From Planctomycetota bacterium (lineage in GTDB: Bacteria; Planctomycetota; MHYJ01; WSZJ01): a DNA stretch of 64,000 bases. A program made the position numbers and the translations under genes. How positions within the stretch are numbered: the first letter of the stretch is position 1; each line of letters begins with the position of its first letter. The DNA lies in contig JBBTCT010000020.1 in the NCBI GenBank assembly GCA_038060895.1, positions 32,001 to 96,000 of the forward strand. Direction: 5' to 3'. Below the pieces are notes generated by a model, which made no database searches, was not told where the DNA came from, and worked only from the letters and a program-made list of their open reading frames with translations. Shown here piece after piece: positions 61,005 to 63,976 of the stretch.

Positions 61005-61331
61005 ATGCCCTCTCCCCAACCCACCGGCCCTCGCCGTCTCGGCGACTACATCAAGTTCTTCCTGAAGAAGAACGGCCTCGACACCACTGTCAAGGTTCTC
61101 GGTGTAGGCAAGGCGTGGGCCGAGGCCGTCGGCGACGCGCGCCTGCTCGCGCACACTCGCCCCGGGACGGTCCGCTCGGGTATCCTGAAGGTCGTCGTGG
61201 ACGCGCCGGTCGTCATGCAGGAGCTCAATTTCCGCCGGCGCGAGCTCGCGAAAAAGGTCGCCGAGCTGGCGCCGACTTCGGGCGTGCGGGATCTGAGATT
61301 TGTCATCGGCAGCATCGAGGGCACAAAGTGA
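61005..61331 (+). CDS. dciA: DciA/DUF721 family protein
   Basis: WAEAVG...[27 protein letters not shown]...L...VRDLRF; located directly upstream of gyrB. Confidence 0.85.
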
Positions 61332-63976
61332 CGAAGCCGGACCTGGCGAAAATCTGGGCGGACGCAGTAGGCGAAGAACTCGCGAAAGAGTCGCGTCCGG
61401 TGGCCATCGCCGCGGGCGTGCTGGGCATCGAAGTCGACAGCGCGATGGGCCTGCAGAAGATCGAGAAGGTAAAGCCGGAGCTTCTGGCGAAGCTCATCGC
61501 CTCCGGCGCGCTGGTCGGCGAGCTGCGTTTCACGATGAAGGAATTCACCGTCGAGGCGCAGAACACCGACGCGGACGACTACGGCGCTTCGTCGATGAAG
61601 ATCCTGGAGGGCCTCGACGCGGTGCGGAAGCGTCCCGGGATGTACGTCGGCGATACCGGTGTGAGAGGGCTGCACCACCTGGTGTTCGAGGTCGTGGACA
61701 ATTCGGTGGACGAGGCGCAGGCGGGGTTCTGCAAGAGCGTGCAGGTGAAGATCAACACGGATGGCTCGCTGACGGTGATCGACGACGGGCGAGGCGTGCC
61801 GACGGATATCCACAAGGAGTCGGGGCTGTCGGGCGTGGAGCTGGCGTTCACGAAGCTGCACGGCGGCGGGAAGTTCGACAAGAACTCCTACAAAGTGAGC
61901 GCGGGGCTGCACGGCGTCGGCGTGAAGGCCGTCAACGCGCTGTCGGAGTGGCTCGAGGTCGAGGTCTGGCGCGGCGGCAAGGAGCACTTCCAGCGGTACG
62001 AGCGCGGCGAGACGAAGACGGCGCTGGAAGCGCGCGGGCTGACGCAGCGGCGCGGGACGAAGGTGACGTTCAAGCCGGACCCGACGATCTTCCTGGAGAC
62101 GACGACGTTTTCGCGGGACCTGCTGGCGAAACGGCTGCGGGAGCTGGCGTTCCTGAACAAGGGGATTTCGATCTCGATCGCCGACGAGCGGACCGGCGAG
62201 AGCGAGACGTTCAAGTTCGACGGCGGGATCCGGGCGTTCGTGCAGCATCTGAACGAAGCGCGGAAGCCGCTTCATTCGGACGTGATCTACTTCGAAAAGT
62301 CCGAGTCGTCGGGGATGACGATCGAGATCGCGATGCAGTACAACGAGGGGTACAACGAGGCGGTCTTCAGCTTCGCGAATTCGATCAACACGCACGACGG
62401 CGGGACGCATTTGAGCGGATTCCGCAATGCGCTGACGCGGACGTTGAACGCGTATTCGCGGAGCCACGAGTTCGTGAAGGTGGACGCGCAGCTGCCGAGC
62501 GGTGAGGACTACCGCGAGGGGTTGACGGCGATCGTGAACGTGAAGGTGCCGAACCCGCAGTTCGAGTCGCAGACGAAGGTGAAGCTGACGAACACGGAGG
62601 TCGAGAGCTTCGTCACGACGGTCACCAACGAGCAGCTCGGGACGTATCTCGAGGAGCATCCGGCACAGGCGCGGCAGATCGCCGAGAAGGCGCTGATTGC
62701 GGCGAAGGCGCGCGAAGAAGCGCGGAAGGCCCGGGAGCGCGCGCGGGCCGGCGCGCTGTCGGGAACGAAGCCCGGCAAGCTCGCCGACTGCCAGGAACGG
62801 GACATGACGAAGTGCGAGATCTACATGGTCGAAGGCGACAGCGCCGGTGGCAGCGCGAAGCAGGGGCGCGACCGGCGCACGCAGGCGATCCTTCCGCTCA
62901 AGGGAAAGATCCTTAACGTCGAGAAGGCGCGCATCGACAAGATGCTCGAGCACGAGGAAATCCAGGCGCTCATGGGCGCGATCGGAACCGGGATCAAGGA
63001 CGAGTTCGACTACTCGAAGCTCAAGTACGGCAAGATCATCATCATGTGCGACGCCGACGTCGACGGCTCGCACATCAGGACGCTTCTGCTCACGTTCTTC
63101 TTCAGGCAGATGCGCGAACTCGTGGAAAAAGGCCACATCTACATCGCCTGCCCTCCCCTGTTCCGCGTCGCGAGAAAGTCAAAAGTCGAGTACGTCCGCA
63201 GCGAGAAGGAGATGGACACGACGCTTCTCAACCTTGGCGTCGAAGGCGCGAAGTTCCGGCGTGGAAGCGATAACAAGGAATTCGTGGGAGGCGACCTGAA
63301 GGACCTGATCGCGCGGCTGACGCGCCTGGACGACCTGGGGAAGGGCCTCGCGCGCCGCGGGATCGACCCGGACAAGTACCTCGAGTTGAAGAACGCCGAG
63401 GGCAAGCTGCCGATCTACCGCGTGGTGTACAAGAAGGCAGACGAGTTCCTCCGCAGCGAGGAGGAGCTGAACATGTGGATCCGCGACAAGCGGGAGGAGA
63501 TCGGCAAGGAGCTCGTCGTGCTCGACAGCGACCTCGGCGAGAAGGCGGAGGACGCGGAGGAGTACGAGCTGCGCGAGATCCACGAGGCCGCGGAGATCGA
63601 GAAGGAGCTCCAGGGCCTCACGTTCGCGGGCTTCCGCGTCGAGGACTACCTCGGCGCACCCGGCGCGGACAAGTTCTTCCTGAGCACCGACGGCGAGACC
63701 AACCAGGTGAATTCGCTGAAGGACCTTATCAAGTCGCTCCGGAAATCCGGCAGCAAGGGCATCGACGTGCAGCGGTACAAGGGTCTCGGTGAGATGAACC
63801 CCGACCAGCTCTGGGAAACGACGATGGATCCCAAGACGCGGACGTTGTTGAAGGTGCGGCTCGAGGACGAGGTCAAAGCCGACGAGATGTTCACGGTGCT
63901 GATGGGCGAGGAAGTGGAACCGCGGCGGCTGTTCATAGAGAAGCACGCGCTTGAAGTGAAGGTGCTGGACGTCTAA
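61328..63976 (+). CDS. gyrB: DNA gyrase subunit B with an N-terminal DciA-like domain
   Basis: [80 protein letters not shown] start overlapping the dciA TGA. Confidence 0.97.

Follow-up and report, generated by a model that had tools for sequence, protein, structure and literature searches.

Can a domain of the replicative helicase loader DciA become a permanent part of DNA gyrase? The question is raised by a stretch of 64,000 nucleotides from an uncultured groundwater genus of the Planctomycetota, here called the window (G000:C20:32001-96000 of the source genome G000; all coordinates are window positions), in which the gene for the gyrase subunit GyrB follows directly on dciA and appears to open with a second DciA copy. 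A preliminary description of this DNA, made from the sequence alone, had proposed that this tandem second DciA module is joined in frame to gyrB, and the proposal was borne out by the sequence itself, by a Pfam match and by an alignment of the two copies. Gyrase must act just ahead of the replicative helicase, and to our knowledge no dedicated physical link between gyrase and helicase has been established in bacteria; a loader-derived domain that sits permanently on the only GyrB of a lineage would represent a natural experiment on such a link. The reading that we favour, to which we assign as a whole a probability of roughly 60%, is that a partial duplicate of dciA was fused to the sole GyrB of the genus as a neofunctionalised docking domain. 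The parts of the locus are the following.

61005-61331 (+): dciA1, a standalone full-length DciA (DUF721) of 108 amino acids with a net charge of +9 and an isoelectric point (pI) of 10.5, assigned by open reading frame, PF05258 match and charge
61317-61321 (+): Shine-Dalgarno (SD)-like motif GAGGG within the final dciA1 codons, 7-11 nt 5' of GTG 61328
61328-61330 (+): GTG, most likely the start of the fused protein, kept in 8/8 genomes of the genus
61328-61534 (+): DciA2 module, residues 1-69, a partial DUF721 domain with a net charge of -1 and a pI of 5.3
61535-61537 (+): internal ATG (Met70), a possible second start, at the position of the gyrB start in relatives
61535-61579 (+): linker, residues 70-84 (15 residues), acidic and predicted to be disordered
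61580-63976 (+): canonical GyrB from Tyr85 to the stop codon, with N-terminal arm, GHKL ATPase, transducer, Toprim and C-terminal domain

Direct reading of the sequence confirmed the tight junction that had been described. The TGA of dciA1 (61329-61331) is overlapped by GTG 61328-61330 in the tetranucleotide GTGA, and no stop codon precedes the GyrB start, the gyrB frame being free of stops over 61115-63976. The preliminary description had also called for a DUF721/DciA profile search of the GyrB N-terminus; PF05258 indeed matched the 81 amino acids from GTG 61328 above its gathering cut-off of 24 (41.3 bits), although as a partial domain covering profile positions 25-89, compared with 45.4 bits over positions 2-89 for dciA1. 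About the first 24 profile positions, which correspond to the first helix region, are absent from the second copy. The two copies share 32% identity over 68 amino acids (E 3e-9), a resemblance that, judged from the sequences, is far above chance. The 882-amino acid product matches PF05258 and then HATPase_c, DNA_gyraseB, Toprim and DNA_gyraseB_C. Its GyrB part reaches 921.3 bits with the gyrB equivalog model TIGR01059 (cut-off 882.4), starting at residue 85; the NF011501 match begins at residue 78, and the parE models stay under their cut-offs.

The first 111 residues of the fused protein were searched against 41 related genomes, i.e. the 8 genomes of the genus (G000-G007) and 33 other genomes of the class. 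An uninterrupted fusion frame, with neither stop nor frameshift, was present in all 8 genomes of the genus, the other 7 being 66-91% identical to G000, so that the same fusion, which the preliminary description had suggested looking for in relatives, is open throughout. In 6 more distant genomes, a DciA-like stretch and the GyrB start share a frame with one stop in between. Two PF05258 copies were found in each genome of the genus, the fused module exceeding the gathering score every time; 31 of the 33 other class genomes have one copy and the remaining 2 have none. Moreover, the fused gene is the sole GyrB-family (PF00204) match in each of the 8 genomes, whose completeness is 81-94%. Being the only such match, the fused protein is presumably a working gyrase B, and every gyrase in these bacteria could carry the module.

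Beyond the class, PF05258 matched in 337 of 401 sampled genomes of the phylum. Among the matches listed (150 of 344), two per genome occurred only in the 4 sampled members of the genus and in G107, G150 and G406, the two matches in G150 lying on separate contigs in short frames, and no PF05258 match outside the genus lay in an open frame of at least 850 amino acids. Since these are 150 of 344 matches, fusions of a single dciA to gyrB could exist outside the genus. Patterns specific to the fused module retrieved 7 loci from 185,579 species genomes, which were the other 7 genomes of the genus. A scan of Joint Genome Institute (JGI) metagenomes gave 9 confirmed loci, one of which (L092) is a further open fusion with 64% identity, the other 8 being ordinary standalone DciAs. 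A word-indexed protein search with 942 candidates yielded 5 clusters of 882-894 amino acids with the same architecture.

Against protein representatives, the first 111 residues gave no full-length fusion among the listed 150 of 1339 matches with E <= 1e-3, a search that tells little about other fusions because the proteins of the genus are themselves not among the representatives. A Pfam scan of 25 listed representative matches found PF05258 in 3. Three candidates for a second fusion lineage were considered and none was accepted. P0008, a 271-amino acid fragment, has a DciA domain separated by about 100 residues of unstructured appearance from a GyrB N-terminus and possibly reflects in-frame read-through in some other lineage; P0018 is under the cut-off and appears frameshifted; and in P0081, which appears chimeric, GyrB precedes DciA. 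Separately, P0097 combines a RecF/SMC C-terminal piece and a GyrB N-terminus in one frame, and P0097 and P0008 may both be further in-frame read-throughs of the recF-dciA-gyrB cluster, or errors. In G229, G116, G244, G302 and G330 (family f34) as well as in G011, G016 and G038, the DciA match ends open frames of about 470-650 amino acids, which could be fusions to the upstream gene or merely long GC-rich frames.

One explanation for the locus would be an assembly or sequencing artefact that produced a false open frame. All sources are metagenome-assembled, and chimeric and frameshifted fragments occur in protein libraries. However, the same open junction recurs in 8 genomes that were assembled separately and differ at many synonymous sites, and again in the JGI contig, and contigs from a different study are identical to the locus over 61234-61416 and 61419-61626, i.e. 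across 61234-61626, which confirms the junction independently. In addition, contigs from RNA libraries span 61080-61379 and 61386-61579 and cover both junctions. An artefact, to which we give next to no credence, is ruled out for practical purposes.

If the frame is real, the DciA-like stretch could nevertheless be an untranslated relic, with gyrB starting at ATG 61535 only and a decaying pseudogene or 5' leader standing in frame by chance. The missing 5' part of the second copy and the location of the ATG at the usual gyrB start would fit this. To assess selection, we compared three phylogenetically separate genome pairs, for which the ratios of nonsynonymous to synonymous substitution rates (dN/dS) were 0.08, 0.14 and 0.40 for the fused module, 0.12, 0.20 and 0.34 for dciA1, and 0.05, 0.23 and 0.29 for GyrB (each with Fisher p <= 1e-3). 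Over all genome pairs, the ratios of the module were mostly 0.08-0.30, and its variable sites fall on codon positions 1/2/3 in the numbers 31/27/59, an excess at the third position. From these comparisons of sequences we conclude that the module is under purifying selection as a protein in the gyrB frame, at a level similar to that of dciA1, contrary to the case of an unconserved upstream segment that the preliminary description had considered as an objection to the fusion. No stop or indel occurs in the stretch in the 8 genomes and L092 despite synonymous divergence (dS) of 0.5-1.0, the core DciA residues are retained, the fold is confidently predicted and an SD-like motif is kept before the GTG. 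Taken together, this leaves the relic very improbable.

The start of translation is the next question. As no stop lies in the frame, any translated module is a GyrB fusion. GTG 61328 is most likely its start, to judge from the conservation of the sequence around it. The frame upstream of the GTG is open for just 7 codons in G004, and an SD-like 5-mer stands at -16..-5 before the GTG in 8/8 genomes of the genus, compared with a background of 4.4% of window positions and 5.3% of GTGs. The motif is present whether this stretch is the end of dciA1 or spacer, as dciA1 can end 28-29 nt earlier. Gene callers elsewhere likewise predicted products of 882-894 amino acids. GTG 61115 was rejected as a start, being an off-frame reading of dciA1 that is closed by stops in G003, G004, G005 and G006.

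A different possibility, which is compatible with the fusion to a docking domain, is that two isoforms are made, DciA2-GyrB from GTG 61328 and canonical GyrB from ATG 61535, so that the cell would contain both tagged and untagged GyrB. Met70 is invariant in the 8 genomes and L092, and it stands where gyrB began ancestrally: it precedes the Y(G/D/E)A motif by 15 residues, a spacing that in outgroup GyrBs ranges over 5-17 residues. However, none of the 8 genomes has an SD-like motif before this ATG. We regard two isoforms as possible, at well under even odds.

How could the fusion have arisen? In a DciA tree of 41 rows and 97 columns, all fused modules group together (100/99) on a stem as long as 1.32, and the clade of the dciA1 copies (92/32) has a short stem of 0.14, the branching inside the module clade roughly mirroring that inside the dciA1 clade. 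Together with the copy numbers, this fits a single event at the root of the genus, a tandem duplication of part of dciA, after which the downstream copy would have changed fast and later come under constraint. In outgroups, dciA stops 2-7 residues past the L(R/K)(F/C) strand and gyrB begins a few codons on, often in the same frame, while in the genus LRF(T/S) is directly followed by Met-Lys-Glu; a small deletion of the stop codon and spacer could have made the fusion, and the order of events given here is putative as well. Furthermore, the residues VTKPDL with which the fused module of G000 opens align with VTKPDF in dciA1 of G006, which indicates the homologous position where a Val codon turned into a start codon.

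One member of the genus deviates in its upstream copy. Upstream of the fused GTG in G004 (L002, G004:C160), at a distance of about 170-420 nt, homology to G003 is lost abruptly within dciA1, immediately ahead of the AHTRPG codons, and the 3' end of an unrelated gene stands in place of the 5' half of dciA1. What is left of this dciA1 covers profile positions 32-89 only, and no other PF05258 copy was found for it in that assembly; either the locus was truly rearranged or the contig is chimeric.

The sequence and the predicted fold of the module bear on what it might do. In an alignment of 39 DciA sequences, including 7 distinct fused-module sequences (those of G003 and G004 are the same), Trp10 is the only invariant column. 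The module also keeps Leu32 and Val36, which are nearly invariant, as well as the (S/T)R arginine (Arg23); from the F(R/K)K motif it has lost the Phe. It begins 29 alignment columns after dciA1, and these columns have no counterpart in it, the in-frame sequence upstream of the module being unconserved or closed by stops in relatives. AlphaFold2, run on this alignment, predicted the succession H-H-E-E-H-H-E of helices and strands for residues 3-70 with a predicted local distance difference test (pLDDT) score of about 85, falling to about 51 for residues 71-85. In a model of the N-terminal 480 residues, the module is again folded, the GHKL and transducer domains are predicted with confidence, and the pLDDT is about 33 over linker residues 71-83. 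The module and the GyrB part were folded from separate alignments, because the DciA rows were badly broken up when fusions, GyrBs and DciAs were aligned jointly with MAFFT. A Foldseek search of the PDB returned first the DUF721 domain of Deinococcus radiodurans DciA (7YKM; E 1.1e-4, template modelling (TM) scores 0.69/0.72, root-mean-square deviation 1.9 Å over 74 columns), followed by Vibrio cholerae DciA in complex with DnaB (8A3V) and by DnaA domain I (4TPS, at rank 4 with TM 0.57); 7YKM was also the sole match of the family profile among PDB sequences. According to these models, the module is a KH-like DUF721 fold on a disordered tether.

The charge of the module differs from that of its relatives. 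Across the 8 genomes of the genus, the fused module has a net charge of -2 to 0 and a pI of 4.9-6.4, compared with +6 to +11 and 10.5-11.5 for dciA1 and with medians of +7 and 10.25 for 25 outgroup DciAs; in the shared region only, the median net charges are -1, +5 and +4, respectively. This bears on the proposal that the module is an extra DNA-binding domain, which would bind single- or double-stranded DNA through its KH-like fold and aid the capture of DNA at the N-gate of gyrase. The DUF721 domains of V. cholerae and C. crescentus DciA are reported to bind DNA, and the module retains the (S/T)R arginine. However, as far as the accessible account goes, V. cholerae DciA, with a pI of about 10, binds DNA via basic residues of its long first helix, and DciAs have pI values of 10-12 (PMC9865707). 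The module, at a pI of about 5, has no counterpart to that helix, and its linker is acidic, too. We therefore consider a DNA-binding role improbable.

The module might instead bind DnaB as DciA does and, as the preliminary description had suggested, thereby keep gyrase next to the replicative helicase in front of the fork. In favour of such a tether, the module retains the DUF721 fold and the invariant Trp; in Mycobacterium tuberculosis, the DUF721-containing half of DciA alone is reported to pull down DnaB, mutation of the conserved Trp alters the association and this residue matters in vivo (PMC5720831). The cryo-EM complex shows DciA N-terminal domains (NTDs) touching the linker helix-docking helix (LH-DH) region of DnaB, with one NTD wedging the cracked DnaB ring via its N-terminal region (PMC13696075). 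The accessible text of the same report places the stable DnaB anchor of V. cholerae and C. crescentus in an extension outside DUF721, however, with the isolated NTD binding weakly (6:1), and in Caulobacter DUF721 is described as dispensable for DnaB binding, yet as binding single-stranded DNA (PMC12547741). The module is acidic and has neither such an extension nor the N-terminal helix region; what follows it is only the 15-residue acidic linker before GyrB. The standalone DciAs of the class are also short, at about 100-110 amino acids, which means that the DnaB anchor may differ in this lineage. When we co-folded the module of G003 with two copies of the LH and C-terminal domain of its DnaB, using alignments of 25 and 39 rows, the score was 0.00, which is evidence neither way. 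The kept Trp possibly leaves a weak or altered contact with DnaB; a specific helicase tether is possible as well, but nothing computed here supports it, and we hold it to be doubtful.

The DnaB genes themselves vary within the sampled genomes. G000 DnaB (G000:C2:232335-234380; L052 913-3591) contains an intein of about 400 amino acids after DnaB_C profile position 198, in an open reading frame of 892 amino acids with the junctions ...ADLRE/CVTGDTLV...VSHN/SGAIEQ. A split DnaB match is likewise seen in G006, G011 and G015; DnaB is uninterrupted in G001, G003, G004, G005 and G007, and G002 matches only from profile position 29.

The reading that we favour, recruitment of the duplicate as a docking domain, would run as follows. 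In this genus, the dciA gene beside gyrB was partly duplicated; the upstream copy, dciA1, would have stayed an ordinary basic full-length DciA, which retains the features of a loader and is likely the working one, while the downstream copy would have shed its first helix region and its stop codon and come to be translated from GTG 61328 as the N-terminal domain of the only GyrB. A flexible acidic linker of about 15 residues would hold the module before the GyrB N-terminal arm, and since the linker runs into this arm, an A2B2 gyrase would have two modules at its ATP-operated N-gate. Being acidic and having neither the first helix nor the extension, the module would hardly serve as a second loader or bind DNA, and most likely it is no longer a loader. 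With its fold and Trp under selection and its flexible tether at the N-gate, a protein-docking role is favoured, perhaps in the manner of DnaA domain I. Candidate partners to which such a neofunctionalised domain would bring gyrase are DnaB, DciA1 or another initiation protein; alternatively, the module would modulate the dynamics of the N-gate. Both the docking function and a partner are putative.

Several observations weigh against this reading. The 8 genomes are close kin, so that the counts of 8/8 are not independent. The grouping of dciA1 with dciA2 in the tree is weak (48/79), and either copy could be the ancestral one. Relative to the most distant member, G007, the dN/dS of the module is 0.35-0.68. 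Two outgroup DciAs of family f10, those of G017 (L049; net charge -3, pI 6.2) and G020 (L015; net charge -8, pI 5.0), are acidic, unlike the other 23, and acidity alone is hence no proof of a lost DciA function. The use of the GTG start is read from the sequence, and canonical GyrB could also, or even mainly, be made from the invariant Met70. The contigs from RNA libraries establish the presence of the locus in such libraries, which is neither proof of transcription nor a record of 5' ends.

A more far-reaching version is that the module is a new type of replisome adaptor, which couples the only type IIA topoisomerase to DnaB or DciA1 at the origin and at forks. We judge this rather unlikely. 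If it were true, removing supercoils would be an inherent function of the replisome and would not depend on diffusion, and the Met70 isoform might supply free gyrase for the rest of the chromosome.

Overall, we see here a real domain recruitment, for which a link between helicase loading and gyrase is attractive but hypothetical. The case shows the reuse of a duplicated DciA domain, and the lost hallmarks of a loader shift the hypothesis from a second loader to a docking domain. Its practical value is limited, as none of these bacteria is in culture, the collections searched show the fusion in one genus only and the architecture is already in print.

Concerning the neighbourhood, dnaN lies upstream of dciA1, which places the locus in a replication gene cluster. 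It occupies 57622-58869 and encodes 415 amino acids (TIGR00663, 266 bits), with a low-complexity insertion of about 45 Lys/Ala/Glu-rich residues (...ENSEADTKVEARAEAKAEKAKGKKAAKDEKPKAPPPEAAETP...) near the C-terminus and a comparable stretch in G006. Between dnaN and dciA1 lie open reading frames at 59071-59679 (-; 202 amino acids) and 59856-60932 (+; 358 amino acids); the latter has no Pfam match, and neither of the two matches NCBIfam. No recF was seen between dnaN and dciA1 in G000, and in G006 dciA1 directly follows dnaN. The usual position of dciA is reported to be between recF and gyrB (Brezellec et al. 2016, PMC5109545).

The closest known systems are fusions that have been listed before. 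The preliminary description knew of no described example of a DciA-GyrB fusion, which was mistaken: in the accessible part of their survey of about 27,000 DciA homologs, Blaine et al. (bioRxiv 10.1101/2022.01.24.477630) give the planctomycete proteins KAF0244841.1 and NUN49423.1 as annotated single DciA+GyrB proteins. Our locus has the same architecture, PF05258 + PF02518 + PF00204 + PF01751 + PF00986, and belongs to the same phylum. Both proteins probably come from this same genus, an unconfirmed guess that draws on the WSZJ01 and JABWAY01 accession series. A full-text literature search found no other paper that mentions the fusion. The accessible part of the survey lists the architecture without an adjacent full dciA, the truncation, the acidic shift, selection or the status as sole gyrB. 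New here are the partial duplicate beside an intact dciA, the restriction to one genus in the collections searched, the selection on the module, the lost loader hallmarks and the sole gyrB.

With the standalone DciAs of V. cholerae, C. crescentus, M. tuberculosis and D. radiodurans (7YKM), the module shares the DUF721/KH-like fold, the invariant Trp, the conserved Arg and Leu/Val and a place in the replication cluster immediately before gyrB. Unlike them, it has neither the helix region at the N-terminus (positions 1-24 of the Pfam profile) nor a DnaB-anchoring extension, it is acidic where theirs have pI values of 10-12, and it is covalently joined to GyrB, its neighbour dciA1 being an ordinary member of the family.

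DnaA domain I is a protein-interaction hub. The module resembles it in structure and in being a small N-terminal domain on a flexible linker ahead of an ATPase, although the two show no detectable sequence relationship. Compared with canonical bacterial GyrB, the protein is standard from Tyr85 onwards, with the arm motif Y-G-A-S-S-(I/M)-K-I-L-E-G-L, and differs by an extra folded domain of 69 residues and a 15-residue linker that precede the arm.

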